IMG/VR virus record: IMGVR_UViG_2565956726_000008
Strand: one strand, 5' to 3'
Origin: a virus
Lineage: Duplodnaviria; Heunggongvirae; Uroviricota; Caudoviricetes
Length of the DNA: 64,000 nucleotides
The translations under genes and the position numbers were made by a program. This document shows, in pieces, positions 3,961 through 51,543 of the stretch (the first letter of the stretch is position 1; each line of letters begins with the position of its first letter). Below the pieces are notes generated by a model, which saw only the letters and a program-made list of their open reading frames with translations, did no database searches and had not been told where the DNA came from.

Positions 3961-5076
3961 TTACAAAATGGAATATTCAGGGTAATAAACAAAACGCCCG
4001 ATTTCCCCATGATCCGGGCTGTAAATAATCACCGCTGCCATCCGCCGCGACCGCCATCCGCCATTTGTTGAGTAAGCGTCTTTACCCGCTAACGTGCCGT
4101 GATACTCAACAACGCCTAACGATGATTCAATCAGCCGTTGATGATGCCAGTGCCCGCAATGAGCGTAAACCGCCGCAGACTTGCCAAAGTCTTCTCGCCA
4201 GTCAGAGACGCAGGCAGACAACAAATTTTCAGGTTTTTTGATAGTATGACCGTGATGATATGCAAGGAATGTTTTGCCGTACTGTGTGTGGTGGACGATG
4301 GCAGGTGACACATCAACAGTAACGCGCGGTTCGTCTTCGTAAAAAGCCGCCAGCGCCGCACGTAGCCAGATCATTCCTGACTGGTCGTGATTACCTGATA
4401 ACACCTGAATTTCTACATCCTTATGATTCAACATCTTACCCACAGCACGCCGTACCGACCGGATCGCTACATAGACAAGTTTTGCGTAGCGACTATCTTG
4501 ATCAAGAATGTGCCCGCTTGTTGGTGTAACCGGAACCATTCCATCAGAGTGAAGCAGATCGCCACCTAACAGCAATACAGCTTTTTCAGACATCGGCGCT
4601 GCGCCTACAGCGTAGTCAAAGAAGTCATTTAACACGCGCTCAGCGATCCCAGTGTCGTAGCTCTCTCCGCATTCAGCTTTATGAGCAAGCGCCCCGATAT
4701 GCAGATCAAATACCGGATAAAGGGCCAGGCTTTTTTGGAAATCAATTTCCGGCACTGGCACGGCCTCCGCGCGGGGTATTTCTTCCGTGAAGGCGTCACA
4801 AGCAGATTGCATTAGCCTTTCCATTTCATCGCGATCACGGGCTGTTTTAATCCAGCGCATAATCACATTGCCATCTTTATCAACGAGCAATGATTCACCG
4901 TCAACACCGAAGCCAGGAGCGCGGCGAGTGGATATTAAACCGCGCTTCGCCAACCTTGCGCCCAGTCGTTCGACATTGCGTTTTGACATGCCGTATTTTT
5001 CAGCGATCTGTTTATACGTTAAACCGTTGTTATATTCAGCGATTAGTTGTTCATCGCTGATCTTTCTTTGTGACAT
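3961..5076 (-). CDS. N-terminal HTH fused to calcineurin-like metallophosphoesterase
   Basis: 371 aa; N-terminal HTH (LTYKQIAEKYGMSKRNVERL); phosphoesterase motifs DLHIG, GGDLLHSDG, SGNHDQ, HHGH, GHWHH. Confidence 0.7.
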   Translation of the reverse strand: MSQRKISDEQLIAEYNNGLTYKQIAEKYGMSKRNVERLGARLAKRGLISTRRAPGFGVDGESLLVDKDGNVIMRWIKTARDRDEMERLMQSACDAFTEEIPRAEAVPVPEIDFQKSLALYPVFDLHIGALAHKAECGESYDTGIAERVLNDFFDYAVGAAPMSEKAVLLLGGDLLHSDGMVPVTPTSGHILDQDSRYAKLVYVAIRSVRRAVGKMLNHKDVEIQVLSGNHDQSGMIWLRAALAAFYEDEPRVTVDVSPAIVHHTQYGKTFLAYHHGHTIKKPENLLSACVSDWREDFGKSAAVYAHCGHWHHQRLIESSLGVVEYHGTLAGKDAYSTNGGWRSRRMAAVIIYSPDHGEIGRFVYYPEYSIL

Positions 5077-5109
5077 AGTGTTATTTCCTCAGGTTTACAT
5101 TTTGTATAT

Positions 5110-6051
5110 TCATTGGCAGCAAACAATCTCTTTGTATGCTTCTTCTACCATGTAGAATACTTCCGGACTGTAATAGAAAAACTCATTACTACCATTAAAT
5201 TTTACAGGAAAGTTAATTTTATAATCGCTAAAAACCTTATGTATCGTGCTTTCTAATTCTTGTACTTTACAGGTTGGCCCTTCTAACGTTTTCACGATAT
5301 GCAAATCAGGAATTCTAACGCCTGCTTTATGTGCGCTTTTTAATATCTGATTTCTTCGTTTATTCTCCTTAATGCTTACACCAATTTTCATCATCATTGG
5401 CACTTCTGGATCGTCAACCATGATGTAAAGCTTTCCGTGGTTGTGGGATAAAAAACCGTGTTTAGCGCATTTCGGGCAACCTTGCCCGCGTTTAAGGTTG
5501 TTGGGAGTGGCTGACCATTCATAGCTACAAACTTTGCAGCGACACAATACTTTTGTTTTGTCATTAACAATTTCACCAATAACTTCAATATCATGATTAA
5601 CAGTGGAAATAGCCGAAACTTGGTTTTCGTGTGATAACTTTCGATTTTCACAGCGCCTTATGTTATAGCATTTCGGGCAACCGTGCCCATGTTTAAGGTC
5701 ATCAGGAGTTGTCTTCCACCAGTGATTGCAAACATTGCATAGGCAGGCTACTTTTGTTTTGCTGTTAACAATTTTTTCTAACACTTCAACATCAGGATTA
5801 ATTTTAGCAATAGCCGAAACTTGGTCTTCGTGTGATAATGTTTGTTTTTGCGATATTTTTATTGCTTTACATTTTGGGCAACCGCTACCGCGCTTAAGGT
5901 TGTTTGGTATTGCCAACCACAAATGATCACAAACCTTGCAGCGGCATAATACTTTTTTGTCGTTACCTGTAATTTCTCCTAATACATCAACATCATGGTT
6001 AACTTTCGCAATAGCCTTAACATGTTCTTCATGCGTCATCTTGCGCGGCAT
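5110..6051 (-). CDS. Triple zinc-ribbon repeat protein with C-terminal T5orf172/GIY-YIG-like domain
   Basis: 313 aa; three ~67-aa repeats each with C-x-C-x2-C ... G-C-P-K-C; C-terminal GKLYIMVDD...KIGVS resembles T5orf172 motif. Confidence 0.6.
   Translation of the reverse strand: MPRKMTHEEHVKAIAKVNHDVDVLGEITGNDKKVLCRCKVCDHLWLAIPNNLKRGSGCPKCKAIKISQKQTLSHEDQVSAIAKINPDVEVLEKIVNSKTKVACLCNVCNHWWKTTPDDLKHGHGCPKCYNIRRCENRKLSHENQVSAISTVNHDIEVIGEIVNDKTKVLCRCKVCSYEWSATPNNLKRGQGCPKCAKHGFLSHNHGKLYIMVDDPEVPMMMKIGVSIKENKRRNQILKSAHKAGVRIPDLHIVKTLEGPTCKVQELESTIHKVFSDYKINFPVKFNGSNEFFYYSPEVFYMVEEAYKEIVCCQ
5440..6051. repeat. Intragenic tandem triplication, unit about 205 bp
   Basis: Three imperfect direct DNA repeats (each containing catttcgggcaacc...gtttaaggt...) encoding the three zinc-ribbon modules. 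Confidence 0.8.
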
Positions 6052-6201
6052 AATTATTTCCCCTTACCAAATCAAGCAAAACGCCTCAGACTCTCTGCAA
6101 CGCAAAAATCCCACCGCGACACCCGTTTGCACAGGTTGCAGTGTCTTATTGCGTCAGAGGCGCTATCAGGTGGCTAATTTTAGATTTACAGACTGGTAGG
6201 T

Positions 6202-6306
6202 GAGTTATGGATTAACTAGAAGGAACAAACCGCCGAACAAAACGACGTTTACAGCGATTGCCGCAGCGATGGCAAAAGCCACGGCGAAAACGTGTTTACT
6301 ATCCAT
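6202..6306 (-). CDS. small hydrophobic peptide (34 aa)
   Basis: ATG preceded by agagagg RBS; translation MDSKHVFAVAFAIAAAIAVNVVLFGGLFLLVNP is a single predicted transmembrane helix. Confidence 0.3.
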
Positions 6307-6439
6307 TTTAAAATCCTCTCTGTAACGCTCTCTAACGAGCTAATCGCAAAAAGGTAAGCAAGTGTAGCACCACATGCGATTTAGCTCGCTGGTGAGGTTG
6401 TTTTGTGGGTAATTTTGGATTTTTGCGGATCGTGGTTGG

Positions 6440-7486
6440 TCAAAGAGCGCCAGCGCGCGTATCACGTAGCGTTTTTGGTTTAAGCAGGAAATCAAGTGTC
6501 GCAGTGAAGCCATTGCCGAAGTAAAAATCTGAAGCCGTGTTTTTGAACGTTTCGAAGTAGGCGACAAAGCCGTTAATGCTTTTGTCTTTCAGGTAGTCAG
6601 TGAACGCATAGATCTTGCGTTCAAGATCCCGATCCAGTTCGGCAGGTGGTAACAGGCCGTCAAACGTGCTGTTAAATGCTTCCACCACGTCGGCAGCGTT
6701 TACAGTAGCTGATAGCTTGCGCCATTGCTCAGCGTCAGCCAGATACCCATCGAATTTAGTTACCCGGCAAATGTTGATAGGCTTAGGTGTTCCACCACGG
6801 CTGCGCCATTGCGTCAAAGCCCATTCGATTACTAATGTGATCTCATCCTCCGTGTATGCCTTACGTGTTTTTGTTTCTGTCAGTAGTTCGATAAATGGCT
6901 TAGCATCACGACACTTGCATCCAGCTTTGTCGTTGTAGAAGGCCAAGCAACGCAATGCCGCTTCGTTTACGCCATCCTGATTGACCGTTTTTTGTCCATT
7001 TTCGCTAATACACGAAGTGTATATATCTTTTTCTCTTTCTTCTTCTACTTCTAATTCATGACCCTTTCCTGACCCGGTCATGACCCTATCATGACCTTTT
7101 GGTGTTGGATTGATTAACTTCTCTAATTTTAATTGCTCCTTCGCTGTGTTTATAGCAGCCCTATAAGCGCTCTTAGAAGTCATTGATTGGTCCAGCCTTT
7201 TTAATAACTTTAGGCAAGTTATGTGGCCTTGAGAACATTCGAACAAACCAATTTCGATGAAGTATTTCATCATTTCTTCTATACGTTTTTCAGTAGATCC
7301 GACGTTTCGCGCAATGATTCTCGCGTCATGTCGTAGGTCAAAATTCAGATTGTGCTGATCTACGTCATAAGTTATTAGTTCGAGGCAATACCAATAAAGC
7401 CCGTACCCTTCCAGGCCATAATCTAACAAAACGTTTTGAAGTTTTTCATCGCGGTTCGCATCGCTGTCATGCTTAAACCACTTCAT
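6440..7486 (-). CDS. Replication initiation protein (O-like replisome organiser)
   Basis: 348 aa; N-terminal MKWFKHDSDANRDEKLQ...YGLEGYGLYWYCLELI resembles the N-terminal domain of phage replication initiators; sits between Cro-like gene and helicase. Confidence 0.6.
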   Translation of the reverse strand: MKWFKHDSDANRDEKLQNVLLDYGLEGYGLYWYCLELITYDVDQHNLNFDLRHDARIIARNVGSTEKRIEEMMKYFIEIGLFECSQGHITCLKLLKRLDQSMTSKSAYRAAINTAKEQLKLEKLINPTPKGHDRVMTGSGKGHELEVEEEREKDIYTSCISENGQKTVNQDGVNEAALRCLAFYNDKAGCKCRDAKPFIELLTETKTRKAYTEDEITLVIEWALTQWRSRGGTPKPINICRVTKFDGYLADAEQWRKLSATVNAADVVEAFNSTFDGLLPPAELDRDLERKIYAFTDYLKDKSINGFVAYFETFKNTASDFYFGNGFTATLDFLLKPKTLRDTRAGAL

Positions 7487-7489
7487 AGA

Positions 7490-7747
7490 TCATCCCTCCG
7501 GCAACATCACTACATAGACATCACTGAATGCATCAAGACGACAAACAAATCCTTTATCCATTAACGCGGCGAAGGCATCATGTACCGTATGAACAGGAAG
7601 TTCACACATTGCGGCTACTTCTTTGCGTGATGCATCATGTACCCGTCCTTTGTTATCTGCCTTTTCAGCCAGAGCCATTAAGACAAGTTTTTGAATCGGG
7701 CTATTAAGTTTTACGTTCCATGCTTTACTAATCATGTTCATACTCAT
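7490..7747 (-). CDS. HTH DNA-binding early regulator (Cro-position)
   Basis: 85 aa from ATG at 7747 with aggag RBS (longest ORF extends to 7825 with TTG); first gene of leftward operon, divergent from CI-type repressor. Confidence 0.5.
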   Translation of the reverse strand: MSMNMISKAWNVKLNSPIQKLVLMALAEKADNKGRVHDASRKEVAAMCELPVHTVHDAFAALMDKGFVCRLDAFSDVYVVMLPEG

Positions 7748-8052
7748 CGCATTTTCTCCTATGGTTAGAGTGAACGCGCGGGCGGGCATCCCATTAGCAT
7801 TAGATAGCAGTGACTGACCGCTCAACAGATCCCGCCGTTGCGTGATATTTGTTTTTCGCTTCGCAGCGACACCGGATTTTTAAAGAGCATAAGGTAAGTG
7901 CCTTTTTGTGCCTTCAGTTATCTTTTTCCTTGCGTCTTTGCAAGTATGGCCTTACCTTGTCTGCAAGTTTACAAAATGGAATTTTAAGATCAAGGCTTAA
8001 AATACACGTTTTGTGACTTGCATCAAACTTTTTGAGGTTATAGGGTAGCGAC
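7748..8052. promoter_or_regulatory. Immunity region: divergent promoter/operator interval between Cro-like and CI genes
   Basis: 305-bp intergenic; palindromic half-sites CTTGC-N6-GCAAG (7929-7944), CTTG-N3-GCAAG (7956-7967), AAGG-N6-CCTT (7891-7904). Confidence 0.5.
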
Positions 8053-8700
8053 ATGAAAACAAAATGGTATGACTTAGCAAAGCAGCTCATGCGGGCGCAG
8101 GGCATGAGTCAGGATTCACTCGCAGATCTCATGGGGATAACTAAAGGCGGCCTGTCACACTGGCTGAACGGTCGCCGCGAGCCAAATCTTGAAGATATTG
8201 CGCGGATTATGCGGGCGCTTGGTCGTCGGCAGTTCACTGTTACACATGATGGTATGGTCATTGATGATTCTGTTTCTAATACACTTCAGGCCGCACCGCC
8301 GCGTGATTTAGGTAGTTACCCGGTTATTGACTGGAAGGACACAGTAAACAATATGGATGACACAAGGCGATCAGCATTACCACACGTTACGACTAGCGTT
8401 ATTTGTTCAGATGATAGTTACTGGCTGGTTGCCAAAGGTGAATCAATGAACGCGCCGCAGGGGTTGAGCATCCCGGCGGGGACGATGATACTTGTTGACC
8501 CGCACGCGCCAGCTATTGACGGCAAACTGGTTATAGCCCAGCTTGAGGAAGGGCAGATACCGACGTTTAAACAGTTGATTATTGATGGAGGTCAAAGGCT
8601 TTTACGTTCGCTCAATCCGCTGTATCCGCCAATCCCTATGAATCCAGAATCAAAAATTATAGGCGTGGTGGTTGATGCGAAGATCGTAAACCTGCCATAA
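8053..8700 (+). CDS. CI-type repressor (XRE HTH + S24 LexA-like peptidase)
   Basis: 215 aa; N-terminal HTH (MSQDSLADLMGITKGGLSHWLNG), C-terminal S24 fold with AKGESM Ser motif and downstream Lys. Confidence 0.9.
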   Translation: MKTKWYDLAKQLMRAQGMSQDSLADLMGITKGGLSHWLNGRREPNLEDIARIMRALGRRQFTVTHDGMVIDDSVSNTLQAAPPRDLGSYPVIDWKDTVNNMDDTRRSALPHVTTSVICSDDSYWLVAKGESMNAPQGLSIPAGTMILVDPHAPAIDGKLVIAQLEEGQIPTFKQLIIDGGQRLLRSLNPLYPPIPMNPESKIIGVVVDAKIVNLP

Positions 8701-9106
8701 ACATTAGCCGCCGGATGGCGGCTTTTCTTTGCCTGGAAAACGCCAAAACGTAAACAGAAAACGTTATTTATTGTTTAAATATCAATAGCATATAAAATAT
8801 TTTAAAAAAGTATACAAAATGGATTGACTCGATGTTTTACGGGGCGTATATTGCGAGTCAAAGGAAGGTCGCAGGTAACAAAAGCAACTTCCTGGCACTT
8901 TAAAAATCAGGCTTAACACCTTGTCAACCGTGGAGTAACTCCCCGATGGGGGACCGAAAGCGGCACTGATAACAAGGCGCATGGGGTGTTTAAAGCGTTA
9001 CATCCCCCACGAAACCGCACGCAAGGCGACGAGTCAGCTTGCTTGGAGTGAGCAAGGTCACGCCGGGAACGGCGATGATTGCGGGATTAGTTGAAAGATG
9101 TTAAGC

Positions 9107-9144
9107 CGCTCATTAACAATCTGGTCAGCCGCTGGAAGTGCGGC
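9107..9144 (+). promoter_or_regulatory. nut-like site (boxA-like plus boxB-like hairpin)
   Basis: cgctcattaacaa resembles boxA consensus (GCTCTTTAACAA); 8 nt later gccgc-tggaagt-gcggc hairpin; lies upstream of an Arg-rich ORF. Confidence 0.4.
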
Positions 9145-9200
9145 AATTAACGAAGATGATTTTTTATTAAGTATCATCAAGGATATACGGAGATCAGATT

Positions 9201-9491
9201 ATGAGCGTTACAATCATGTATGGCAAATGTGACAGTAAACTGAATGCCAGGGAACGCAGAAAAATAAAAAGAGAAAACGAAAGAAAATCATCACCTGCAA
9301 TCAATAAAACAGACAATGTGGATAAAGCTATTCGATTTGCAAACGAGGAAAGATGCAAACCAAATAGCATTAAAGAACGTCGCAAAGGATCAGTAAAATG
9401 GTATACGGAAAATGAAAGCGGCAGCTACTACCACGCAACGCAACCACGCCATTTAGGGGAAAAACCCCTGGATAAAGTCCGCTACCATTAA
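9201..9491 (+). CDS. putative N-like antitermination protein
   Basis: 96 aa, basic; arginine-rich motif NARERRKIKRENERK near N-terminus; ggag RBS; follows nut-like site. Confidence 0.35.
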   Translation: MSVTIMYGKCDSKLNARERRKIKRENERKSSPAINKTDNVDKAIRFANEERCKPNSIKERRKGSVKWYTENESGSYYHATQPRHLGEKPLDKVRYH

Positions 9492-9520
9492 TACAAAATG
9501 TAAACATCCGGAGATGACAT

Positions 9521-9640
9521 TATGGTTATTCAGGCGCTTCAATTCAAACTGGCAGTAGCGGAAATGCTTCACGATGCCGAAATGTGGAGCGCCGCGAATA
9601 AAGCCTTATACATAGTGTTAACAGCACGGGAGATTAAATA
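9521..9640 (+). CDS. small hypothetical protein (39 aa)
   Basis: ATG with ggag RBS; stop abuts erf start codon. Confidence 0.25.
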
Positions 9641-10282
9641 GTGAAAACAGAGTTACATAAAAAGCTATGGACGATTCAGCAAACGCTGAACGCGCCGAAA
9701 AATCAGCGTAATAATTTTGGTGGATATAATTACAGGTCGGCGGAGGATATTTTAGAGGCGGTTAAACCACTGCTTCAAAATATCACGCTGACTGTTAGTG
9801 ATGAAATTGTCCTGATCGGCAATCGCTATTATGTGAAAGCAACGGCGGCGCTAAGCGACGGTGAAGACGTAATAGCGGTAACTGCTTATGCCAGGGAAGA
9901 AGAAAGCAAGAAGGGTATGGACGCCAGCCAGCTAACAGGAGCAACATCAAGTTACGCGCGGAAATATGCTTTGAACGGTTTATTCTGTATAGATGATGCT
10001 CGCGATCCTGATACTGATGCTTACGCGAAGCAGACAGGCCAGCAGCCGCGACAACAGAAAAACCCACCAAAACAACAACCGCAGCAGCAGAAATCGCCGC
10101 CAAATCCTGATGAAGTATTAGCACGTTTCTGTGATGCGGCAGCGAAAGCGCAGGACGAAAAAGCGCTTAAAGATATTTTTGCTAAATGCTGGAAGTTATT
10201 ACCTGAAAACTCAGAGCAACGACAGAAAGCGAGCGACGTATACCAGATCAGAAAATCAGAGCTTAACGGGGAGATGGGTTAA
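9641..10282 (+). CDS. erf: Erf-family single-strand annealing protein
   Basis: 213 aa; by-eye similarity to P22 Erf (LNAPKNQ...YRS.EDILE.VKPLL, VSDEIVLIG.RYYVKATA, GMDA.Q.TGATSSYARKY.LNGLF.IDDA.D.D). Confidence 0.85.
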   Translation: MKTELHKKLWTIQQTLNAPKNQRNNFGGYNYRSAEDILEAVKPLLQNITLTVSDEIVLIGNRYYVKATAALSDGEDVIAVTAYAREEESKKGMDASQLTGATSSYARKYALNGLFCIDDARDPDTDAYAKQTGQQPRQQKNPPKQQPQQQKSPPNPDEVLARFCDAAAKAQDEKALKDIFAKCWKLLPENSEQRQKASDVYQIRKSELNGEMG

Positions 10283-12730: not shown

Positions 12731-12988
12731 GAAGAAGTAAAAGCGCTCATGCCATTGTTTTACGGTGAAATGGTTGGCAATGATATGCGTGCAAATGATT
12801 TCGGCGTACAGGCGGCTATCGCTGTGCTTAATGAGGCACGGGAAAACGCACAGCCAATGCCTGAACAGGGGAAACGTGTACTGCATTAACCGAGTAATTC
12901 CGATCACATAAATATACATTTTGTATTGTGAACGCATATCCGTTTTGTAAGCCGAAATCAAAAGGTTTACGGTGCGGAGGAAGCAAAA

Positions 12989-13693: not shown

Positions 13694-13694
13694 A

Positions 13695-16278: not shown

Positions 16279-16357
16279 TTTACAAAATGGCATCATTGCG
16301 TGATGCGGATCACATAATGGCGCTTTTTGCCTTGTTTGGGGGTATCCATTTTGTATA
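16279..16357. repeat. Intergenic motif pair TTTACAAAATGG / CCATTTTGTATA flanking GTGA-N6-TCACA palindrome
   Basis: tttacaaaatggcat (16279-16293), cgtgatgcggatcaca (16299-16314), atccattttgtatac (16343-16357). Confidence 0.7.
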
Positions 16358-16435
16358 CTTCAAGCAAACAAAATGCTCTTTAAAAATCCGGCAGCGCTGA
16401 AATGCGTAGAAATCACCTGAAAAGGAGAGAGCATT

Positions 16436-22956: not shown

Positions 22957-22999
22957 TTTACAAAATGGCATTGTTTCAGCAGTGCCATTTTGTTATAAA
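22957..22999. repeat. Intergenic palindrome TTTACAAAATGGCA-N12-TGCCATTTTGTTATAAA
   Basis: Near-perfect inverted repeat in the 100-bp gap between small-ORF arrays. Confidence 0.7.
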
Positions 23000-23034: not shown

Positions 23035-23313
23035 ATGAAACGCTGGATTAACAAAGAAGTCGAATCTCGCTTAAACGCATTTTGGGAGATGGTGGAGAAA
23101 GAAGACCCAGCACACGCTGCAAGCCCTTACCTGAACAACATCGAATATCACTACATTGCAGCAAACAACGCGGAGTTCGAAGAAGAAGGTGGAGCCGACA
23201 AGTTCGCACAAAGCAACGCATTCAACAACGCAAACGAAATGATGATGGCAGTCATCGAACAGGCAGAGGAAGACTACGAATGCAAATCACTTGAATTTGC
23301 ACGCATGGCATAA
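23035..23313 (+). CDS. hypothetical acidic protein (92 aa)
   Basis: ORF with ggag RBS downstream of palindrome. Confidence 0.4.
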   Translation: MKRWINKEVESRLNAFWEMVEKEDPAHAASPYLNNIEYHYIAANNAEFEEEGGADKFAQSNAFNNANEMMMAVIEQAEEDYECKSLEFARMA

Positions 23314-25082: not shown

Positions 25083-25104
25083 AGCCGTATTTGTTGGGGG
25101 TAAT

Positions 25105-25332: not shown

Positions 25333-25340
25333 CGCCGTAT

Positions 25341-25369
25341 TTGTAGAGCGCAAACAAACAGATTAAAAT
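25341..25369 (+). promoter_or_regulatory. candidate sigma70-type promoter upstream of lysis cassette
   Basis: TTGTAG-17 nt-TAAAAT; followed within about 30 nt by a terminator-like hairpin. Confidence 0.3.
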
Positions 25370-25397: not shown

Positions 25398-25419
25398 CCC
25401 GGCCCCGCGCCGGGTTTTT
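25398..25419 (+). terminator. hairpin plus T-run immediately upstream of holin gene
   Basis: cccggc-cccgc-gccggg followed by ttttt. Confidence 0.45.
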
Positions 25420-25439
25420 GCTTTGTTGGAGGAAAATCT

Positions 25440-38888: not shown

Positions 38889-39548
38889 TTAATTCCAGTT
38901 GCAAGCGTTTTTCACTTTGTCGATGTGGTTATAAAGACCATCAATGTTAAACACTGCTTTCTCAATGTCGCCAGCTTCCGGCACTGCTTCAATGATAAAT
39001 TGTTTTTCGTTAACCAGTTTTTTAATCATTGGGATGGCTTTTTTGCCGTCCCATAATCCAAGAGCTTTATAATTAGTTGACCGCCACCACTCAGTAGCTA
39101 CAGCTTTGTGATCGCCGATCCGGTAGTTAATATAAGTAGTGTCCCCAGCGTCAGTTACATGGTTTGACCATGCTACGAACATTTTTGTTTTATTACCCTG
39201 GCAAGCGATTGTTAATACAGGTTTGTTTTCATCCCGTGCTTTCAGTGTAGGGAAAGCATCAAGACTTCCGCTGAAATGTTCTGCTTTCACGAAAAGGAAC
39301 ACGTTTTTTGTGTCCTGCATATCATCTTTTCTTTCGACCACAAGCCACTGTTTACCAGCTTTTTCTTTTGCTAACTGTGCCTCATATGCGGCTTGTTTTG
39401 CTTGTTGTTCTGCAAGCCATTTAGCATTTTTCTCTGCTAATGCTTGTTGTTCTTGAGTGGTCACTATAGGCGCTTTTTCATTATCCTCATTGCAACCAAC
39501 CAGACCCAATACCGCCGCAATCATTGCCACTTTTGCTAACCGTTTCAT
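38889..39548 (-). CDS. moron: lipoprotein (219 aa)
   Basis: Signal peptide MKRLAKVAMIAAVLGLVGC with lipobox LVGC; Ala/Gln/Lys-rich coiled segment. Confidence 0.65.
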   Translation of the reverse strand: MKRLAKVAMIAAVLGLVGCNEDNEKAPIVTTQEQQALAEKNAKWLAEQQAKQAAYEAQLAKEKAGKQWLVVERKDDMQDTKNVFLFVKAEHFSGSLDAFPTLKARDENKPVLTIACQGNKTKMFVAWSNHVTDAGDTTYINYRIGDHKAVATEWWRSTNYKALGLWDGKKAIPMIKKLVNEKQFIIEAVPEAGDIEKAVFNIDGLYNHIDKVKNACNWN

Positions 39549-39593: not shown

Positions 39594-39655
39594 TTTATAC
39601 AAAATGGAGTCGTTGAAGTAAAGCCATTTTGTATAAAATAGATACACAGATCACA
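39594..39655. repeat. Intergenic palindrome TTTATACAAAATGG-N16-CCATTTTGTATAAAA plus ACACAGATCACA
   Basis: Lies 20-80 bp upstream of tape measure start. Confidence 0.7.
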
Positions 39656-42104: not shown

Positions 42105-42359
42105 TCACTTATGAGTGCCTTTCACGCCACATAACTTGTTATAGGCATGGTGCTCAACAATTAACCAAACCTTCAAATCTTCGCTAAACAGCCTCCAATC
42201 AAGATTGATATCCATTTTGTATCCGTAACCGTCGCGTAACTTTTTGGGGTAAACTTCTTTTCTCAGAAAGGCTTTAAGTAATTCCTTACCTTTCTTGATG
42301 ATCCGGTCCTGTGCGTTTTTCTGTGCTTTCAGATTTCTGTCAATCGCTACCAGTTTCAT
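42105..42359 (-). CDS. moron: RelE/YafQ-like toxin candidate (84 aa)
   Basis: By-eye resemblance of C-terminal half (DINLDWRLF...GTHK) to YafQ (EPDWILIY...TGTH); second gene of a two-gene minus-strand cassette. Confidence 0.35.
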   Translation of the reverse strand: MKLVAIDRNLKAQKNAQDRIIKKGKELLKAFLRKEVYPKKLRDGYGYKMDINLDWRLFSEDLKVWLIVEHHAYNKLCGVKGTHK

Positions 42360-42533: not shown

Positions 42534-42601
42534 TTGGGCCTCCTTCGTTGGTACTACTTTCTTCTTGCTTTCTATATACATCTTGTTGCGTGCTATGTGA
42601 A

Positions 42602-42685
42602 GCCATTTTGTAAACTAGCTATAATCATTGTGACAATGATCTTATTTTTCGCGTAGAAGCGCGTAAAGATATATACAAAATGTAA
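42602..42685. repeat. Intergenic motif pair GCCATTTTGTAAA ... ATATACAAAATGTAA
   Basis: Copies of the recurrent motif upstream of the M-like gene. Confidence 0.6.
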
Positions 42686-42699
42686 CTTGTGGGGGTTTT

Positions 42700-43406: not shown

Positions 43407-43655
43407 CTATAAGTTATCACGCAGATAATTAACGCCCTTATCAGTGACGAATGAATGGTTAACCTGGTTTTCATCCGTCATGATGATGAATAACTTTTCA
43501 TGTAGGTATTTCGCTTTCGGGTACAGCGTTAAACAGACCTGGTACAGTATCCCGCGCTCAATCAGCAAATCAATAAATTCGTGTTCATGATAACCGATGA
43601 GGCGGGCGGCCTGTTTCAACGTGTACACATAATCACCGTGATTGCGCCGCCCCAT
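43407..43655 (-). CDS. moron: hypothetical protein, possibly DNA-binding (82 aa)
   Basis: Minus-strand ORF; third gene of three-gene cassette. Confidence 0.45.
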   Translation of the reverse strand: MGRRNHGDYVYTLKQAARLIGYHEHEFIDLLIERGILYQVCLTLYPKAKYLHEKLFIIMTDENQVNHSFVTDKGVNYLRDNL

Positions 43656-44181: not shown

Positions 44182-44195
44182 AACGCACCTCCGCG

Positions 44196-44292
44196 CCATT
44201 TTGTTAACTATGCTTCCGTTTGAGTAAAATATACATATTGTAAAAACCGCGATCAATCCATTTTGGTATGATTTAGCGTGACGCAGATCACA
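44196..44292. repeat. Intergenic motif copies GCCATTTTGTTAAC, ATCCATTTTGG and CGTGACGCAGATCACA
   Basis: Upstream of L-like gene start. Confidence 0.6.
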
Positions 44293-45015: not shown

Positions 45016-45017
45016 TT

Positions 45018-45749
45018 ATGGCACTTGAAGATAAAATGATTCGCTATGCAGCAGCCCACCCGCGCGAGGAAGTGTGCGGGCTGGTGATAGATAACGATTA
45101 TTTTTACCCGTGCGCTAACGTGTCTGAAACGCCGCACAACAGCTTTAAAATCTCGCCTGACGATTATATCAAAGCTGACGAATTGGGCGTTATAACAGCC
45201 GTTTTCCACTCTCACGTTGAAGATATTCCGGTATTGTCGGCACGGGATCGACAACAGCAGGTTATTTCCGGCCTGCCGTGGTTTTTATGTTCCGGTGGCA
45301 GGGTTAGAAAATTCCGCCCGGTAGCGCACCTGTTAGGCCGAAAATTTGAGCACGGGAAAACAGACTGCTACGCGCTTTTCCGCGACGCATATCACCTTTG
45401 TGGCGTGGATCTACCGGACTTCGAGCGCCTTGATGGCTGGTGGCTGCGTGGGGAAAACCTGTACATAAAAAACCTGCCATTGAACGGGTTTTTCATGGTT
45501 GATGCGCAAAGCATTCAGCCTGGTGACGTGATTATTCGCCAGCCGTTCAAGGGTGCTGACCCATGTCACGCGATGATTTACCTGGGCGATAACACTGTTT
45601 TGCATCATGACAATGCCGGACTGCTAAGCCGCCGCGAGCAAATGCGGCCCGCGTATGTTCGACAAACGCATTCAATATGGAGATCTGACAAATGCTCAAA
45701 TTTAGATTTACGGGCAATCTTCGAAGATATTACGGCAAAGTGTGTTTAA
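45018..45749 (+). CDS. tail assembly protein, lambda K-like (JAMM/MPN + NlpC/P60)
   Basis: about 243 aa from ATG 45018 with aaggtggg RBS; HSHVEDIP and Cys/His peptidase-like region. Confidence 0.7.
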   Translation: MALEDKMIRYAAAHPREEVCGLVIDNDYFYPCANVSETPHNSFKISPDDYIKADELGVITAVFHSHVEDIPVLSARDRQQQVISGLPWFLCSGGRVRKFRPVAHLLGRKFEHGKTDCYALFRDAYHLCGVDLPDFERLDGWWLRGENLYIKNLPLNGFFMVDAQSIQPGDVIIRQPFKGADPCHAMIYLGDNTVLHHDNAGLLSRREQMRPAYVRQTHSIWRSDKCSNLDLRAIFEDITAKCV

Positions 45750-46222
45750 ACGTTGATACGCCAGCACAAGGACTTAGCCTATTGACCGCGCAGAATCAGG
45801 AGTTCAAGAAGGCTTTTTTAAATACACCTTTGCGGTTACGGATTGCCGGGAAAGATTATAACGAAAAGACGGCCCCGGCAGCGGTTAATAGTAAATACCC
45901 TGACGGAACTACCGTCATTATTGCGCCAGTAGTTGAAGGCGGTATTGCTGGGATTGGTGTTGTAGGCTGGATCCTGATTGGTGTTTCGGTGGTTAGCGTT
46001 GCGTTCTCAATCTTTATGTCCCGCAACATGAAGATAAAAACATCGGCAGAAAGCGCACAAGATAACACCATAACGAACAACACCTACACCAGCATTGAAA
46101 ACAAGGTGGGCCAGGGTAGACCAGTGCCAATACTATTAGGTGAAATGAAAATAGGTTCAAACGTCGGATCGTTAGGCATAGACACAAGCAACAATAGAGA
46201 CGCCTTAGACGTTGTAAGTTAA
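45692..46222 (+). CDS. tail assembly protein, lambda I-like
   Basis: 176 aa; hydrophobic Gly/Ile-rich central segment and ILLGEMKIGSNVGS resembling lambda gpI. Confidence 0.65.
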   Translation: MLKFRFTGNLRRYYGKVCLNVDTPAQGLSLLTAQNQEFKKAFLNTPLRLRIAGKDYNEKTAPAAVNSKYPDGTTVIIAPVVEGGIAGIGVVGWILIGVSVVSVAFSIFMSRNMKIKTSAESAQDNTITNNTYTSIENKVGQGRPVPILLGEMKIGSNVGSLGIDTSNNRDALDVVS

Positions 46223-46235
46223 CAGGAGAAAAACC

Positions 46236-49200
46236 ATGAGTAGCGGCGGCGGCAAAGCCAAAACACCAACATTATTGAACGATAACCTGTATCACAAACA
46301 GTTTTATCGTGTTTTAGATATTCTCAGCGAAGGGCCGATATACGGTCCGGTAAACCAGAAAGCGCCATTGAATGACGTGATGCTTAATGACACTCCTGTT
46401 ACTGACGCAAACGGGAATACATCAATTCCGGGGATTAGTATAGCCTGGCGCAACGGCACGGCTGACCAATCGCCGATTAATGGTTTTAACGCCATTGAGT
46501 CAACCGTTATTGTCAACGCAAAGGTAACTCACGACACACCAATAATCAGGACTGTTTCAGATCCAAACGTTACCCGCGTCAGGTTGAATCTTGGTGTTGA
46601 TGCTCTCGTTCAGTCAGATGAAAAGGGCAATCAATATAATACATCCGTCATGTTGATGGTTGATGTTAAACCGTCATCATCTTCTACGTGGTCGCTGATT
46701 AAAGACATACACATTGGCCCTGGTAAACAAAGCGGTGAATACCTGGAAGCTCACATCATTAAAGCGCCGGATGAAAAACCGTTTGATATTCGCGTTCGTC
46801 GCATAACACCAGACAGCAACGGCGATCTATTGCGGAATGATACGCGGTGGAGTAGTTACAGCGAAATAATAGATGATAATCTGTCTTATCCTCATACCGC
46901 TGTAGCTGGCGCCGTAATTGACCATGATCAGTATACTGATACGCCTACCCGCACCTATCACCTTCGCGGCCTGATTGTTGATGTGCCTGACAACTACAAC
47001 CCTGAAACGCGCACATATTCAGGTTTATGGCTTGGTGGATTTAAAAAGGCGTATACCAATAACCCTGCATGGCTTTTCCGGTATCTGGTTAAAAACGAGC
47101 GCTTTGGACTTGCTCGACATGCTGGTTACATTGATGTTGATGATGGCGCTTTGTACGTGCTTTCTCAATACTGCGATCAGTTGGTTGATGATGGCTATGG
47201 TGGCCTTGAACCTCGCATGACGCTTAACGCTTACATTACGGAGCAAATGAGCGCCCGCGACCTACTGGATAACATCGCAGGTATGTTCCGTGGTATCGCG
47301 TTATGGGACGGACAACGTCTTACCGTGATGATTGATGCGCCACAAGATCCAATCGCCACCATCACAAATGCAAACGTCGTTGATGGCGCGTTTACTCGTT
47401 CAAGTATCGCACGCGCAGAATGCTACAACGCCGTGATCGTATCCTGGACTGACCCTGAAAACGGCTGGGAGCAATCAAAAGAATATGTCGCAGATGATAA
47501 ACTAATCGCCCGTGATGGTTATAACGAAACCACGTTGGAGGCGTTCGGTTGCACTTCACGCGGGCAAGCGCACCGCGCTGGTAAATGGCTGATCGAAACA
47601 GCGAAACGCGAGCCGTCAAAATTCACATTTAAAATGGCCCGTGACGCCATTCACTTTACGCCGGGGGATATAATCGAGATCCTCGATAATAATCGCGCAG
47701 GCGCTCGTTTAGGCGGTCGCATCGTGGCGAACAATGGCAGAGCGATCACGGTCGACAAGGTTGATTCTGAATATATCGCGGCTGGCGACACCATCAGCTT
47801 ACTTGATAGCGATGGTAAATTTAAAAAACACCAGATCATCGGAGTTAACGGGAACATTATCACCCTTGCAGCCGCCCCGGCGTGGATTCGTAACGGCACT
47901 GTTTTTGCTGTATCAACCAACGCAGCAAAACCCGTTTTATGTCGAATCACCAGTGTAGCAGAAACAGAAAATAACAGCGTATACACCATCGAGGCCGCAC
48001 AGCATGATCCACATAAGCAGGCCGTAGTCGATAATGGCGCAATCTTCGAGATCAATAACGACACGCTTAATCACTTCCGCGTGCCGAACATTGAAAATCT
48101 GAAGGTGTTAAACGTTGGATCTGAAACGGTTCAATGTCGCGCAACATGGGAAACACAGACGACAACGCGTCGCCTGACCTTTGAGATTCGCGTGTATAAC
48201 GCCGAAGGCGCTGTAGTTAAAAGCTACGAAACCACGAATTACAGTTATGATTTTTATGGCATTGATGCTGGCAACTACTCATTAGGCATTCGTGGCAGAA
48301 ATGACACGGGCATGAAGGGTGCGGAAAGCATTGTCGATCTGGTTATTGGCGCACCAGCGGCCCCAGTTGGCGTTAATTGGGTTCCCGGTGTATTCCAGGC
48401 TACAGTTTACCCGATCAGCAGAACAACGCTCACCACTGATACCAGTTACGAGTTTTATTACTCAGGTGAAACGCAGATCACTGATCCGGCATCAATAACC
48501 ACTAAAGCACAATATACCGGGCGTGGTCATCAGTGGACGTTTGGCGGCATGAATACAGGTCACACATATTACGTTTATGTGCGCGCGCGTAACGCTTTTG
48601 GTGTGTCTGACTTTGTGGAAGCGTCAGGTAAGCCAACAGAAAACTTTGATGAAATTACCGATTACGTCACCAAAGACGTAATGAATTCCAAACAATTTAA
48701 AGAAATGGTTGGTGACATTAAAGATCTAGGCGACCGCACTGATCTTATCGAAAGCGCTACGAATGACCTTAAAACTGCTACTGACAACCTCAAAACTGCA
48801 ACTGATAATCTGACCAACATAACTGACGATTTAAGGACTGAAACTGACAACCTAACCATAGAAACAGGATCAATAAAAGCTGATACTGATACGCTCAAAA
48901 AAGAAACGGAAGATCTTTATAAAAAAGTTAAGGAAAACGCCGATGATATTGGACAGCATGAGTCGAGAATCGACTCGCTGGAGGTGTCTAGCGAAAAAGT
49001 TGGCAGCGAACTGGCGCAAGCAAAAGCAAGTCTGCAAAACGCCTCACTTGCTCTTATTAATAACTCGCTTGCACAGACTAACACTCGCGTAACTCTTACC
49101 GCTCAGTACAAGAAAGGCAGGACAGAGACGAAAGCGGAAATTGACCGCATTGACAACGTTATCGCTGAAGAGAAAAAAGCGACAGCGGAATCACTGGAAA

Positions 49201-51098
49201 CCATCACGGCAGAAATGAATGTGATGGACACAAACCTTAAAGGTCAGATCTCTAATGTGCAACGCGCAGTAGCTGACGAGGCCAGCGCCCGCGCTGAAGC
49301 TATTAACGGTGTAAATGCCTCAATAAGCAATCTTGACAAGAAAACTGACGCCAGCGTAAACCGTCTTGATCAGGCAATTGCAGACGAAACAAGTGCGCGT
49401 ACTCAGGCTATCAGCGACGTGAACGCAAGTATCTCAACACTTGACAAGAAAACTGACGCCAGCGTTAAGCGCCTCGATAATGCAATATCAGATGAAACGC
49501 AGGCAAGAAGCGACGCAATAACAGTGGTTAAAGCTGATTTAACAACGCTTGAAAATAACACAAATGCCAGTGTTAGCCGTCTTGATCAAGCTATCGCTGA
49601 TGAATCAAGCGCACGTGCTCAGGCGATATCAGGTATCAGCGCGACGCTTGGCGGCGTTAAAAGTGAGGTTGATAAAAACAGCGACGAGATAGATCAGGCG
49701 AAAGCAAGTCTGCAAAACGCATCTCTGGCGCTTATTAATAACTCAATGGCGCAAAGCAAGATGAGCACTGTTATTGAGGCGAAATACAGGAAAGGACAAA
49801 CAAAAACAAAAGCGGAAATAGCAAGGGTAGACACAGCAATCGCAGATGAGGCGAGCGCACGCGCAGAAGCTATTAGCGGGGTTAATGCGTCAATTTCCAC
49901 GCTCGATAGCAAGGTGACAAGCAACGTAACCAGGATGGATAAAGCGATCGCAGATGAGAAGAATGCACGCACTGACGCAATCAGCAGCCTTAACTCATCG
50001 CTTACCAGTACGATTAATTCGAAAGTATCCGAAGTGTCAACTGCACTTTCTACGCATGAAACATCAAGCGCGGAAAAATTTGGCCAGATCTCGGCATCTT
50101 TCGACGATGTAAACTCAAGCATCACGGAATGGTCACAGGCTATGGCAACGGCAGACGAGGCATTGTCAACCAGAATCGACCAGTTGAAAGTAACTATTAA
50201 CGGAAACACAACGGCGATAGAAACGACATCAAAAGCACTGACTGACTTCAAAGGTAACGTTGATGCGTCATATTCAATTAAGATTGCCACTGATAAAAAC
50301 GGTATGAAATACGCTACAGGAATGTCGCTCGGCCTTACTGGTAGCGGGACTAACGTTCAATCGCAGTGTATTTTCCTCGTTGACCGTTTCGTGCTTATGA
50401 CTGCGGCAGGTGGCTCCTATCAGACCCCGTTCTATGTTACTAACGGTGCTTGCTACATCCGTGATGCGTGGATCAGAGACGCATCAATCACTACCGCGAA
50501 GATTGCGCAGCAAATTCAGTCAACCAACTATAAAGCTGGTTCGGCTGGCTGGATGCTAAATAAAAACGGCAATGCGGAGTTCAACAACGTCACTGTACGC
50601 GGTACGGTGTACGCAACATCTGGTAAATTCACTGGTGAGATTCAGGCCACAAGCGGGAAGTTTAAAGGTACAGTAGAGGCAAAGTCATTTGTCGGTGACG
50701 TTGCTAACATGGGGGTTGGTCCAGATCGAGTGCTTGGGCATAACGGAAGTTATAGCGCAACCATCACATATAAAGACAGCACGGATAATGCATTGACGAA
50801 ATCAGTTATGCTTATGGCGACTATTTCATTAATGTCTGGTGAATATAGATCCACTTATAACGTAACGTTTAGTTGCGGAGATAAAAACAAAACAATTTCA
50901 TATTACGTGCCTTATGGTGGATGCACATTAACAGTGCAATGCGCTTTTTCTGGTTTAAAAGCATCAGATATTATCGGGAAAATATATTGTCCTCAAACAT
51001 CATCATCTGAAGGATACGCATATTGTACCGCGTTGTATTCTCCAACAATGATAGTAGCAAGAGGCACCGGATCATTTAGAACATCAACGACAGCATAA
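46236..51098 (+). CDS. central tail fibre / host specificity protein, lambda J-like
   Basis: 1620 aa; N-terminal two-thirds collinear by eye with lambda gpJ; C-terminal part carries repeated coiled modules and a distinct distal domain. Confidence 0.85.
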   Translation: MSSGGGKAKTPTLLNDNLYHKQFYRVLDILSEGPIYGPVNQKAPLNDVMLNDTPVTDANGNTSIPGISIAWRNGTADQSPINGFNAIESTVIVNAKVTHDTPIIRTVSDPNVTRVRLNLGVDALVQSDEKGNQYNTSVMLMVDVKPSSSSTWSLIKDIHIGPGKQSGEYLEAHIIKAPDEKPFDIRVRRITPDSNGDLLRNDTRWSSYSEIIDDNLSYPHTAVAGAVIDHDQYTDTPTRTYHLRGLIVDVPDNYNPETRTYSGLWLGGFKKAYTNNPAWLFRYLVKNERFGLARHAGYIDVDDGALYVLSQYCDQLVDDGYGGLEPRMTLNAYITEQMSARDLLDNIAGMFRGIALWDGQRLTVMIDAPQDPIATITNANVVDGAFTRSSIARAECYNAVIVSWTDPENGWEQSKEYVADDKLIARDGYNETTLEAFGCTSRGQAHRAGKWLIETAKREPSKFTFKMARDAIHFTPGDIIEILDNNRAGARLGGRIVANNGRAITVDKVDSEYIAAGDTISLLDSDGKFKKHQIIGVNGNIITLAAAPAWIRNGTVFAVSTNAAKPVLCRITSVAETENNSVYTIEAAQHDPHKQAVVDNGAIFEINNDTLNHFRVPNIENLKVLNVGSETVQCRATWETQTTTRRLTFEIRVYNAEGAVVKSYETTNYSYDFYGIDAGNYSLGIRGRNDTGMKGAESIVDLVIGAPAAPVGVNWVPGVFQATVYPISRTTLTTDTSYEFYYSGETQITDPASITTKAQYTGRGHQWTFGGMNTGHTYYVYVRARNAFGVSDFVEASGKPTENFDEITDYVTKDVMNSKQFKEMVGDIKDLGDRTDLIESATNDLKTATDNLKTATDNLTNITDDLRTETDNLTIETGSIKADTDTLKKETEDLYKKVKENADDIGQHESRIDSLEVSSEKVGSELAQAKASLQNASLALINNSLAQTNTRVTLTAQYKKGRTETKAEIDRIDNVIAEEKKATAESLETITAEMNVMDTNLKGQISNVQRAVADEASARAEAINGVNASISNLDKKTDASVNRLDQAIADETSARTQAISDVNASISTLDKKTDASVKRLDNAISDETQARSDAITVVKADLTTLENNTNASVSRLDQAIADESSARAQAISGISATLGGVKSEVDKNSDEIDQAKASLQNASLALINNSMAQSKMSTVIEAKYRKGQTKTKAEIARVDTAIADEASARAEAISGVNASISTLDSKVTSNVTRMDKAIADEKNARTDAISSLNSSLTSTINSKVSEVSTALSTHETSSAEKFGQISASFDDVNSSITEWSQAMATADEALSTRIDQLKVTINGNTTAIETTSKALTDFKGNVDASYSIKIATDKNGMKYATGMSLGLTGSGTNVQSQCIFLVDRFVLMTAAGGSYQTPFYVTNGACYIRDAWIRDASITTAKIAQQIQSTNYKAGSAGWMLNKNGNAEFNNVTVRGTVYATSGKFTGEIQATSGKFKGTVEAKSFVGDVANMGVGPDRVLGHNGSYSATITYKDSTDNALTKSVMLMATISLMSGEYRSTYNVTFSCGDKNKTISYYVPYGGCTLTVQCAFSGLKASDIIGKIYCPQTSSSEGYAYCTALYSPTMIVARGTGSFRTSTTA

Positions 51099-51100
51099 AA

Positions 51101-51129
51101 AACGGGGCATAAGCCCCGTTTTTTTTTAT
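51101..51129. terminator. bidirectional Rho-independent terminator
   Basis: aacggggc-ataa-gccccgtt + ttttttttt between convergent genes. Confidence 0.85.
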
Positions 51130-51138
51130 GCATTGTTT

Positions 51139-51384
51139 TTATTTTTTACACCCATCATTTACACCAGAAAAATGGATAGGTAAATTACATTCACTGTCAA
51201 TAATTTTACCTTGTAGTTGTTTTTCTTTCCATGAGTCAGTATTGAAATAACTCGAACGTTGGTTATCAAGGCCAGTATCACCATATTGAGCAGTGCCAGC
51301 ATCACTCTTATCTGTCGAATTTACAGAAGCAAAAGCACCAAAAGACAGAGCTGATAAGATGCAAGCAACAATTAGTTTTTTCAT
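51139..51384 (-). CDS. moron: small secreted protein (81 aa)
   Basis: ATG at 51384 with aaggtga RBS; signal peptide MKKLIVACILSALSFGAFA; two Cys near C-terminus. Confidence 0.55.
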   Translation of the reverse strand: MKKLIVACILSALSFGAFASVNSTDKSDAGTAQYGDTGLDNQRSSYFNTDSWKEKQLQGKIIDSECNLPIHFSGVNDGCKK

Positions 51385-51518
51385 TGTATTCACCTTACTG
51401 TTTGTTTTACTGTCATTTGTTGTTCGTGATGATCCACCCATCCGATGAGCAAATCACCGCAGAAGCTATCATTTCGTATGTTGATATAGATCAAAAAATA
51501 CACTATGTATAAGCCCAA

Positions 51519-51543
51519 AGTGTAACACAGATCACAAAATGGT
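51519..51543. repeat. Intergenic motif TGTAACACAGATCACAAAATGG
   Basis: Combines GTAA-N6-TCACA palindrome and ACAAAATGG motif, 40 bp upstream of side tail fibre start. Confidence 0.6.

Follow-up and report, generated by a model that had tools for sequence, protein, structure and literature searches.

The IMG/VR virus record IMGVR_UViG_2565956726_000008 was analysed over a stretch of 64,000 nucleotides (nt), hereafter the window, in which a short AT-rich motif recurs between the genes of a tailed-phage prophage. The prophage occupies positions 1 to ~53,600 and is ~85% identical to mEp021, mEp010, mEp044, mEp554, mEp013, mEp515 and MagusPhagus; the remainder of the window is host DNA (zntB, dbpA, ttcA) and a Rac prophage (intR, recE). 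These phages make up the mEpimmI (mEp021) group of Nus-dependent non-lambdoid coliphages, which have one common immunity and are reported to equal the lambdoid phages in frequency among human gut coliphage isolates (PMC11893012). Gene order in the window is that of mEp021. The leftward operon carries replication genes, and the rightward early operon encodes the N-like gp17, erf, ssb, methylases, NinG, RusA and a PF03589 Q protein. Beyond it lie many small genes, followed by the lysis, head and tail genes, and four short reverse-strand cassettes (morons) are inserted among the tail genes. The gene of the lambda-CI-type repressor Rep (8053-8700) sits between the predicted early promoters PL and PR, in the same direction as PR. 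We propose that the motif is the operator of this repressor, a reading to which we assign a probability of roughly 0.7.

Among the 8- to 12-mers of the window, TWTACAAAATGG shows the strongest over-representation. The 12-mer TTTACAAAATGG is present in five exact copies, and its sub-words are the commonest 8-, 9-, 10-, 11- and 12-mers of the whole window. With up to two mismatches it has 25 matches versus 11.6 +/- 3.4 expected, a count reached in none of 100 shuffles. A position weight matrix (PWM) made from the 13 best copies of the 12-mer gives 27 matches at a threshold of at least 9 bits versus 6.4 expected, all of them below position 53,600. These results bear out the first-pass annotation of this DNA, which had reported at least 12 copies of a motif of about 12 bp and none in the Rac or host part. 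Each position that it listed holds a copy within 1-3 bases; the copy at 44258 is weak, and the one at 51535 is a portion of ATCACAAAATGG. The copies had also been described as almost all intergenic, and 11 of the 13 copies with at most one mismatch indeed lie between genes when the curated mEp021 annotation is transferred by synteny, the genome being ~90% coding. The inverted pairs are equally real; two of them (22957/22985 and 39596/39624) have an identical 16-nt gap. The earlier comparison with start-associated repeats does not hold, since the distance to the start codon ranges from 10 to >100 nt (10-122 nt) and both orientations are used, with opposite orientations even inside co-directional operons (3960 versus 5097; 16279 versus 16346). 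No motif clusters were found in terminator-only gaps of the window or upstream of its lysis genes.

Motif sites are syntenic in mEp021, mEp010, MagusPhagus and ~45 IMG/VR relatives. Across 15 site classes in these relatives, mean nucleotide diversity is ~0.03 in the 12-mer versus 0.10-0.12 in the 15-30 nt flanks, that is, the sites are 3-4 times more conserved than their surroundings. At PR, AAAAAAGTATACAAAATG is invariant in 33 distinct relatives, as are the -35 and -10 elements, and the promoter spacer varies freely. The left half of OR1, the site over the PR -10, is restricted in the relatives to TTTAC, ATCAC or TATAC, and its GTATA half is invariant. Judged from these alignments, the motif is under selection. 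Among viral contigs, exact inverted pairs are found in the mEpimmI group and in one short contig, L115 (IMGVR_UViG_3300042564_006922). A search of one genome per species returned 59 matches, exclusively in unrelated taxa and none of them enterobacterial, which look like chance AT-rich palindromes. The pair in L115, the only viral contig outside the mEpimmI group, reads TACAAAATGG...CCATTTTGTA with a 21-nt gap.

Rep matches the lambda repressor (3bdn) with E = 1e-19 and is 91-100% identical in all mEpimmI relatives (44 IMG/VR relatives). The longest word common to the PL and PR control regions that flank its gene is TACAAAATGGA. Six homologous repressors, 38-51% identical to Rep, are encoded on unrelated phage backbones, where they form classical divergent cro/rep switches. 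Five of the six have a recognition helix similar to that of Rep, G(I/V)(T/S)(K/Q)G(G/A)(L/V)(S/G)HW, and the sixth (L230, from Shewanella) has VTPGGMGHW. The cro/rep intergenic region of these foreign switches is ~100 nt long and contains three copies of one site, 26-33 nt apart (Table 1). In L096/L098, L227, L228, L229 and L231 the site has the form (T/A)ATAC(A/G)-N4-G(T/G). The presence of three TATAC-N5-GTATA-like copies in each homologous switch indicates that the operator of the Rep family is a 15-bp pseudo-palindrome, TATAC-N5-GTATA. Most sites of the mEpimmI group are composed of a left half (TATAC, TTTAC or ATCAC), a fixed A-rich centre (AAAAT) and GG, which together make up the 12-mer of the first-pass annotation. 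Read against the family consensus, the window motif TATAC-AAAAT-GG is thus a form of this operator in which the left half follows the consensus, the A-rich centre is fixed and the right half is degenerate. One of the Citrobacter operators, AATACAAAATGGAAC, is literally the same sequence as the window motif.

A second matrix, referred to as the foreign PWM, was built from 17 operators of four switches (L098, L227, L228 and L229) and includes no sequence from the window or its group. At a threshold of at least 12 bits it finds 12 window sites versus 2.95 expected (at most 8 in 40 simulations), and at a threshold of at least 14 bits nine versus 1.1 expected. All 12 sites (5094, 7009, 8811, 9490, 12913, 16343, 39596, 39621, 42209, 42672, 44230 and 51497) lie in the prophage. 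They mostly coincide with the loci already noticed by eye and add full palindromes at 12913 (TATACATTTTGTATT), 44230 (TATACATATTGTAAA) and 51497 (TATACATAGTGTATT). The first of these is the best match to the family consensus (21.4 bits). Two operator-type matches fall in coding sequence, namely, TATACACTTCGTGTA in the replication-initiator gene (7009-7023, minus strand) and GATACAAAATGGATA in an 84-aa reverse-strand open reading frame (ORF; 42209-42223).

Three Logan assemblies, L224-L226 (SRR23253299, SRR16327198 and SRR29703794), represent a sister group of mEpimmI whose genomes are laid out in the same way. Their Rep is only 55% identical overall to that of the window, but the two recognition helices are the same. 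The motif is dispersed in these contigs too, and two of its copies lie immediately 5' of an ANT/pRha antirepressor gene. The gene in the Cro position of L224-L226 (HTH_3, 75 aa) has no similarity to gp14 of the window. Since the motif is kept although the Cro-position gene is unrelated, it is independent of gp14 and follows the DNA-binding domain of Rep. Of the earlier interpretation, the suggestion that the motif represents promoter or operator elements is supported: the motif is group-specific, lies on or near predicted sigma-70 promoters and matches the operator type of a CI-type repressor family. From these sequence comparisons we infer Rep binding, promoter activity and the direction of the effect, be it repression or activation.

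Table 1. Repressor gene, operator-type sites, predicted promoters, nut sites and CRP-like dyads of the window, with the operators of homologous switches (handles of the source contigs in brackets)
Feature	Position	Strand	Sequence	Context
Rep, CI-type immunity repressor, proposed motif binder	8053..8700	+		Pfam HTH_3 5e-13, Peptidase_S24 4e-19
Single operator-type site	3960..3974	+	TTTACAAAATGGAAT	Leftward operon, between stop of 371-aa gene and start of DnaB-type helicase gene
Palindromic site	5094..5108	-	TATACAAAATGTAAA	20 nt upstream of start of 371-aa gene; foreign PWM 14.9 / 14.3 bits (two strands)
nutL boxA	7877-7889	-
Predicted PL	-35 7988-7993; -10 7966-7971	-	TTGATC, 16-nt spacer, TAAACT	Leftward
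OL1	7968..7982	+	TTTACAAAATGGAAT	Over -10 of predicted PL
OL2, weaker	8003..8017	-	GTCACAAAACGTGTA	gp14/rep intergenic, 35 bp from OL1; foreign PWM 10.0 bits
OR2	8811..8825	+	TATACAAAATGGATT	Ends on first two bases of PR -35; foreign PWM 15.5 bits
Predicted PR	-35 8824-8829; -10 8847-8852		TTGACT, 17-nt spacer, TATATT
OR1	8836..8850	-	TTTAC-GGGGC-GTATA	Over PR -10
nutR1 boxA	9107-9119
Site	9490..9504	+	AATACAAAATGTAAA	At stop codon of N-like gp17 gene; foreign PWM 14.2 / 15.4 bits; conserved
Operator pair	12913..12951		TATACATTTTGTATT 12913-12927 and CTTACAAAACGGATA 12937-12951 (-)	Centres 24 bp apart
Operator triplet	16279..16357		TTTACAAAATGGCAT 16279-16293 (+), ATCACATAATGGCGC 16309-16323 (+), TATACAAAATGGATA 16343-16357 (-)	Spacings 30 and 34 bp; encloses t4 terminator hairpin
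CRP-like dyad	16300..16314		GTGATGCGGATCACA	Also apex of predicted t4 terminator hairpin
Predicted promoter 5' of nutR2	-35 16332-16337; -10 16354-16359		TTGTTT, 16-nt spacer, TATACT	-10 overlapped by third site of triplet
nutR2 boxA	16374-16386		TGCTCTTTAAAAA
Inverted operator pair, 40 bp	22957..22996			Over predicted rightward promoter, ahead of gene at 23035
Predicted 22.9-kb promoter	-35 22971-22976; -10 22994-22999		TTGTTT, 17-nt spacer, TATAAA	Rightward
Inverted operator pair, 40 bp	39596..39635			Between VasI-like gene (38889-39548, -) and tape-measure gene
Predicted 39.6-kb leftward promoter	-35 39622-39617; -10 39599-39594		TTTACT, 17-nt spacer, TATAAA
Predicted 39.6-kb rightward -10	39632-39637		TATAAA
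Operator cluster	42575..42686		TATACATCTTGTTGC 42575-42589 (+), TTTACAAAATGGCTT 42600-42614 (-), TATACAAAATGTAAC 42672-42686 (+)	Between second reverse-strand cassette and M-like tail gene
Predicted 42.6-kb leftward promoter	-35 42601-42596; -10 42578-42573		TTCACA, 17-nt spacer, TATATA
Sites	44193..44244		TTAACAAAATGGCGC 44193-44207 (-), TATACATATTGTAAA 44230-44244 (+)	Upstream of L-like tail gene; second site 18.2 bits
CRP-like dyad	44278..44292		GTGACGCAGATCACA	19 nt upstream of L-like gene start; arms conserved, centre variable in 34 relatives
Operator triplet	51497..51574		TATACATAGTGTATT 51497-51511 (-), ATCACAAAATGGTAG 51531-51545 (+), TTAACAAAACGGAGT 51560-51574 (+)	Between reverse-strand ORF 51139-51441 and tail-fibre gene; centres 34 and 29 bp apart
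CRP-like dyad	51522..51536		GTAACACAGATCACA	Overlaps operator-type site 51531
Tatumella switch (L229)			AGTATACATTTCGTATC / AATATACATTTTGTGTC / TTTATACGGATTGTATT
Enterobacter switch (L228)				Three operators before rep, three after
Citrobacter switch (L227)			AATACATAACGTACT / AATACAAAATGGAAC / AATACGGATTGTAAT
Serratia switch (L231)			TATACATATCGTATT / TATACATATTGTGTC / TATACAAAACGTATA
Switch of IMG/VR contigs (L096/L098)			AAGTATACAT x3
Shewanella switch (L230)			TGTAC-N5-GTACA x3	Divergent helix TPGGMGHW

Strong sites are located at 3.9, 5.1, 9.5, 12.9, 16.3, 22.9, 39.6, 42.6, 44.2 and 51.5 kb, which provides a putative map of about ten control regions, with TATACAAAATGG as the candidate concrete operator and TATAC-N5-GTATA as its family form. 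Clusters contain two or three sites with centre spacings of 24-37 bp. OL1 and PL are found ~70 nt upstream of the nutL boxA, and the region of OL2 is invariant in relatives. The two sites at PR are 25 bp apart, over the -35 and the -10, and span 40 bp (8811-8850); PR itself scores 10/12 in a promoter scan, among the best of its region. A further two words that weakly resemble the motif, CAAAACGT and GAAAACGT, are found at 8741-8765, 50-70 nt 5' of the PR operator and 13 nt from each other. They do not vary in relatives and may serve as auxiliary sites. In the leftward operon, the site at 3960 is conserved in 30 distinct relatives. The same operon encodes, at 5110-6051 (minus strand), a 313-aa protein with treble-clef zinc-finger/CapR-homology repeats and a T5orf172 (GIY-YIG-like) domain.

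The layout of the PR sites is not confined to the early region. The 40-bp arrangement TATAC-N30-GTATA is found at four loci (PR, 8811-8850; 22957-22996; 39596-39635; 42575-42614), where it brackets a -35 and its spacer, and the predicted PR, 39.6-kb leftward and 42.6-kb leftward promoters all read motif-N1-(-35)-N17-(-10). At 39.6 kb each site is positioned at about -41 for one of two divergent predicted promoters and at about -16 for the other. The neighbouring gene at 38889-39548 (minus strand), which precedes the tape-measure gene, codes for a protein of the VasI family (VasI/EvfG domain of type VI secretion, 5.6e-16), and in relatives its slot is filled by unrelated cassettes. Further downstream, TTAACAAAATGGCGC is located 14 nt 5' of a small ORF heading the cassette with a KilAC/ANT-domain gene. 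The latter gene (43407-43655, minus strand), in the cassette between the M-like and L-like tail genes, lies downstream of the operator-type sites 44193 and 44230; its product, of 82 aa, has a KilAC/ANT antirepressor domain (1e-6).

The triplet around 16.3 kb stands next to nutR2; the placement of nutR2 and t4 in the window follows PMC11893012. The promoter predicted there would start a few bases 5' of the nutR2 boxA and 3' of t4. Phages of the mEp021 type use three nut sites (PMC11893012), and a promoter of its own, predicted upstream of nutR2, could explain the third.

The clusters mark the predicted PL and PR, a third predicted early promoter 5' of nutR2, the predicted 22.9-kb promoter and the predicted divergent promoters at the junctions of reverse-strand cassettes with the tape-measure, M-like, L-like and fibre genes. 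In a lysogen, Rep dimers would fill all clusters cooperatively, occlude the -10 or -35 elements and shut the promoters. Upon induction, RecA-stimulated self-cleavage of Rep would free all clusters together, and the lytic Cro-type partner would presumably act on the same sites. A wider version of this model, in which a lambda-CI-type repressor runs a prophage-wide regulon of about ten clusters, with control of moron and tail genes, activation from -41, looping and a nutR2 promoter, is tentative, and we consider the odds to lean against it. Under such a regulon, the reverse-strand cassettes and the downstream tail-gene promoters may be under immunity control rather than being constitutive lysogenic-conversion units. 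By analogy, Rep at -41 may activate one promoter while repressing the opposite promoter of a divergent pair, the C-terminal domains of the CI-type repressor could link distant clusters by looping, and the third nut site may be needed because nutR2 has its own Rep-controlled promoter.

Several observations weigh against Rep as the protein that binds the motif. Most sites are not two-fold symmetric: full palindromes are seen in the window at 5094, 8836, 12913, 44230 and 51497, and the commonest form is TATAC-AAAAT-GGnnn without a second half. A conserved TGG in place of the GTATA half is odd for a CI-type dimer, and two-fold symmetry hidden within the 12-mer was looked for and not found. The TGG form may reflect contacts made by the N-terminal arm, which is lysine-rich and conserved. 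Between gp14 and rep, the switch region contains a strong site and a weak one, versus three sites in the homologues. Copies at 3960, 5097, 42672, 44196 and 51560 abut ribosome-binding sites and lack a convincing promoter, and all promoters named here are consensus matches, i.e. predicted. Sites centred at about -41 would, as for lambda CI at PRM, be more in keeping with activation than with repression. Finally, the near-identity of Rep in all 44 IMG/VR relatives means that the group offers no sibling with a different helix in which covariation of repressor and motif could be followed.

The same asymmetry would suit a monomeric binder better than a CI dimer, and the motif might accordingly be bound by another protein, such as gp14, the first PL gene product (in the Cro position), another conserved early protein or a host factor, with CRP taking the GTGA-N6-TCACA dyads discussed below. 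We regard this as improbable. gp14 is without counterpart in L224, which nevertheless keeps the motif; the 12-mer fits no host-factor consensus known to us; the host part of the window lacks the motif; and exact inverted pairs are specific to the mEpimmI group, apart from the L115 contig and unrelated taxa. The site type tracks the Rep family across unrelated phage backbones. It is likewise unlikely that the motif is a promoter element recognised directly by host RNA polymerase, without a phage protein dedicated to it. In reverse, such an element would consist of CCATTTTG plus a -10 hexamer (TAWACT, TATAAA or TATATT), and in forward orientation its A-tract at -48 to -37 would serve as a proximal UP-element subsite. 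The reverse complement with its flank does give -10-like hexamers (T1, A2 and mostly T6) at nearly all sites, three predicted promoters have a forward copy exactly at -48 to -37, and ACAAAATGG is similar to the proximal UP subsite, the consensus of which is AAAAAARNR. However, it is CCATTTTGT, rather than the hexamer, that holds most of the information; T.TAC and TGG never vary, which would not be needed for either a -10 or an UP element; and the G is at -13 rather than at the extended -10 position -14. Moreover, a leader would have no space at the copies 3960, 5097, 42672 and 44196, and the same site type is found in triplets at the homologous-repressor switches of unrelated phages.

RNA stem-loops were another of the readings first offered: the inverted pairs would form hairpins, or cruciforms, and act as terminators, processing sites or antitermination signals. 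The pairs fold at -15 to -20 kcal/mol with z-scores of -4.8 to -6.1, and in mEp010 the 22957 pair differs by two A>G changes, with G-U pairing preserved on the plus strand. Covariation is nonetheless absent: among 17 distinct sequences upstream of the tape-measure gene, 10 of the 12 base pairs never vary and the two variable ones only break (11 unpaired cells), with no two-sided change and a covariation score of 0. The stems are AU-rich without a U-tract, half of the sites are single copies, the spacers range from 16 to 57 nt, and both orientations relative to transcription occur, which makes this explanation very unlikely. The only terminator-like hairpin at motif copies is t4 (~16290-16328), between two of them. 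Equally little favours the motif being a linker for modular recombination at cassette borders, like the PeSL cassettes of T4-type phages; such a role is highly improbable. Unrelated cassettes upstream of the tape-measure gene do all join the backbone within ~20-45 nt of the motif pair. Yet the motif is found only on the promoter-proximal side of the reverse-strand cassettes, a terminator closing the distal side, the PL, PR, 3960, 5097, 9490 and 12913 sites are not at variable cassettes, and 12-15 bp is short for homologous exchange. What remains of the proposed module-boundary role is at most a by-product of conserved regulatory DNA.

Other candidates were rejected. The motif is not a -35 element (TTTACA), as no -10 is found at 16-18 nt from any of five TTTACA sites, and it does not fit the 434-type operator ACAA-N6-TTGT. 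By-eye comparison with the consensus sequences known to us for sigma-54, IHF, TyrR, OmpR, CpxR, DnaA and the GadE box gave fragmentary fits at most. The boxA and boxB of nutL, nutR1 and nutR2 adjoin the motif but are distinct from it. As for a Q-loading or late-promoter element, neither the motif nor the dyad lies upstream of the t5 terminator and holin gene, and a PF03589 Q protein needs one site.

The CRP-like dyad is distinct from the motif and weaker, and three of its copies are good. GTGA-N6-TCACA with at most one mismatch is marginally enriched (20 matches versus 12 +/- 4 expected). The copies at 16300, 44278 and 51522 fit the 15-nt pattern GTRAYRCRGATCACA exactly and match the CRP core TGTGA-N6-TCACA at 9/10 positions, and relatives keep the arms and vary the centres; these three dyads are plausible CRP sites. 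Of the four palindromes initially described, the one at the tape-measure gene (39641-39655) has only the right half, ATCACA, and its left half fails. They had also been placed 25-55 bp 5' of start codons; the distances are 21, 19, 46 and 122 nt, not all of which are within that range. In part, the element is something else. When nAATGG follows it, ATCACA is a variant of the left half of the operator, as at 16309 (ATCACATAATGG), at 51531 (ATCACAAAATGG) and in the PR -10 operator of relatives, and the 16300 dyad is the top of the t4 hairpin. Going by the predicted -10 elements, the dyads would lie at about +5 to +15, which does not suit activation. The window differs from known CRP sites in its marginal enrichment, in one of four sites without a left half and in one that tops a terminator hairpin.

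Operators of CI-type repressors are a known kind of element; what is unusual here is that the sites are scattered over about ten loci, some of them in the tail region, and that they mostly have an asymmetric TGG form. Rep has the same fold and domain structure as lambda CI (helix-turn-helix and S24), the consensus of its family is a 15-bp pseudo-palindrome, and clusters of two or three sites cover the -10 and -35 of predicted early promoters beside the repressor gene, as at lambda OL and OR. Neighbouring lambda operators are ~24 bp apart and are bound cooperatively by CI dimers, a spacing comparable to the 24-37 bp of the window. Unlike in lambda, the window has about ten clusters over 48 kb, which include the tail gene region and not the immunity region alone, only one strong site lies in its switch region, a fixed AAAATGG replaces the second half-site in the majority of sites, and rep lies between PL and PR, co-directional with PR.

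In layout, the closest analogues are the P1 C1 operators and the stoperators of mycobacteriophages. Operators of P1 C1 are scattered genome-wide, single or paired, largely asymmetric, and control unrelated units including an antirepressor. They have a 17-bp consensus, ATTGCTCTAATAAATTT, C1 is not a lambda-CI/S24 protein, and P1 is a plasmid prophage. The dispersed layout alone is common to both systems, whereas motif and repressor family differ. The stoperators of L5 and Bxb1, bound by gp71 and gp69, are many 12-13-bp sites in short intergenic gaps, strongly biased to one orientation, which act on elongation. The window likewise has many sites in short intergenic gaps, in early and late regions, that are far more conserved than their surroundings, but it has both orientations, inverted pairs and, at most sites, overlap with predicted promoter hexamers, and Rep is unrelated to gp71. 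The start-associated sequences of cluster K mycobacteriophages are similar in being a recurrent short intergenic motif, and five window copies abut ribosome-binding sites; the window differs in its range of distances to the start codon (10-122 nt), the use of both strands, the inverted pairs and the many copies at divergent promoters.

A full-text sequence search of the searchable literature retrieved the motif in unrelated eukaryotic papers only and in no phage paper. The mEpimmI paper, which covers nut sites, terminators and Rep021 immunity, does not describe the operators (PMC11893012); it considers that Rep021 probably recognises operators other than those of lambda CI (PMC11893012). If Rep binds the motif, a lambda-type repressor would run the kind of dispersed network seen elsewhere in P1 and mycobacteriophages, the lysis-lysogeny switch would extend to the inserts of the tail operon, and the third nut site would have a rationale in its own operator-controlled promoter. 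The proposed operator would also help to find related prophages by sequence and to predict immunity groups.

Two further features of the prophage concern neither the motif nor the dyad. Seven Chi sites (GCTGGTGG) are present on its plus strand (22872, 25683, 27725, 35599, 36364, 36568 and 45436) and none on its minus strand, with ~0.8 expected per strand, and five of the seven have the longer word GCTGGTGGCTG in common. The strand bias suggests oriented protection of phage DNA against RecBCD. In addition, a direct repeat, GCCGTATTTGT, is found at 25085-25097 and 25335-25347, ~250 nt apart and just 5' of the t5 terminator (25399-25420) and the holin gene, and may be part of the late promoter or Q-loading region.

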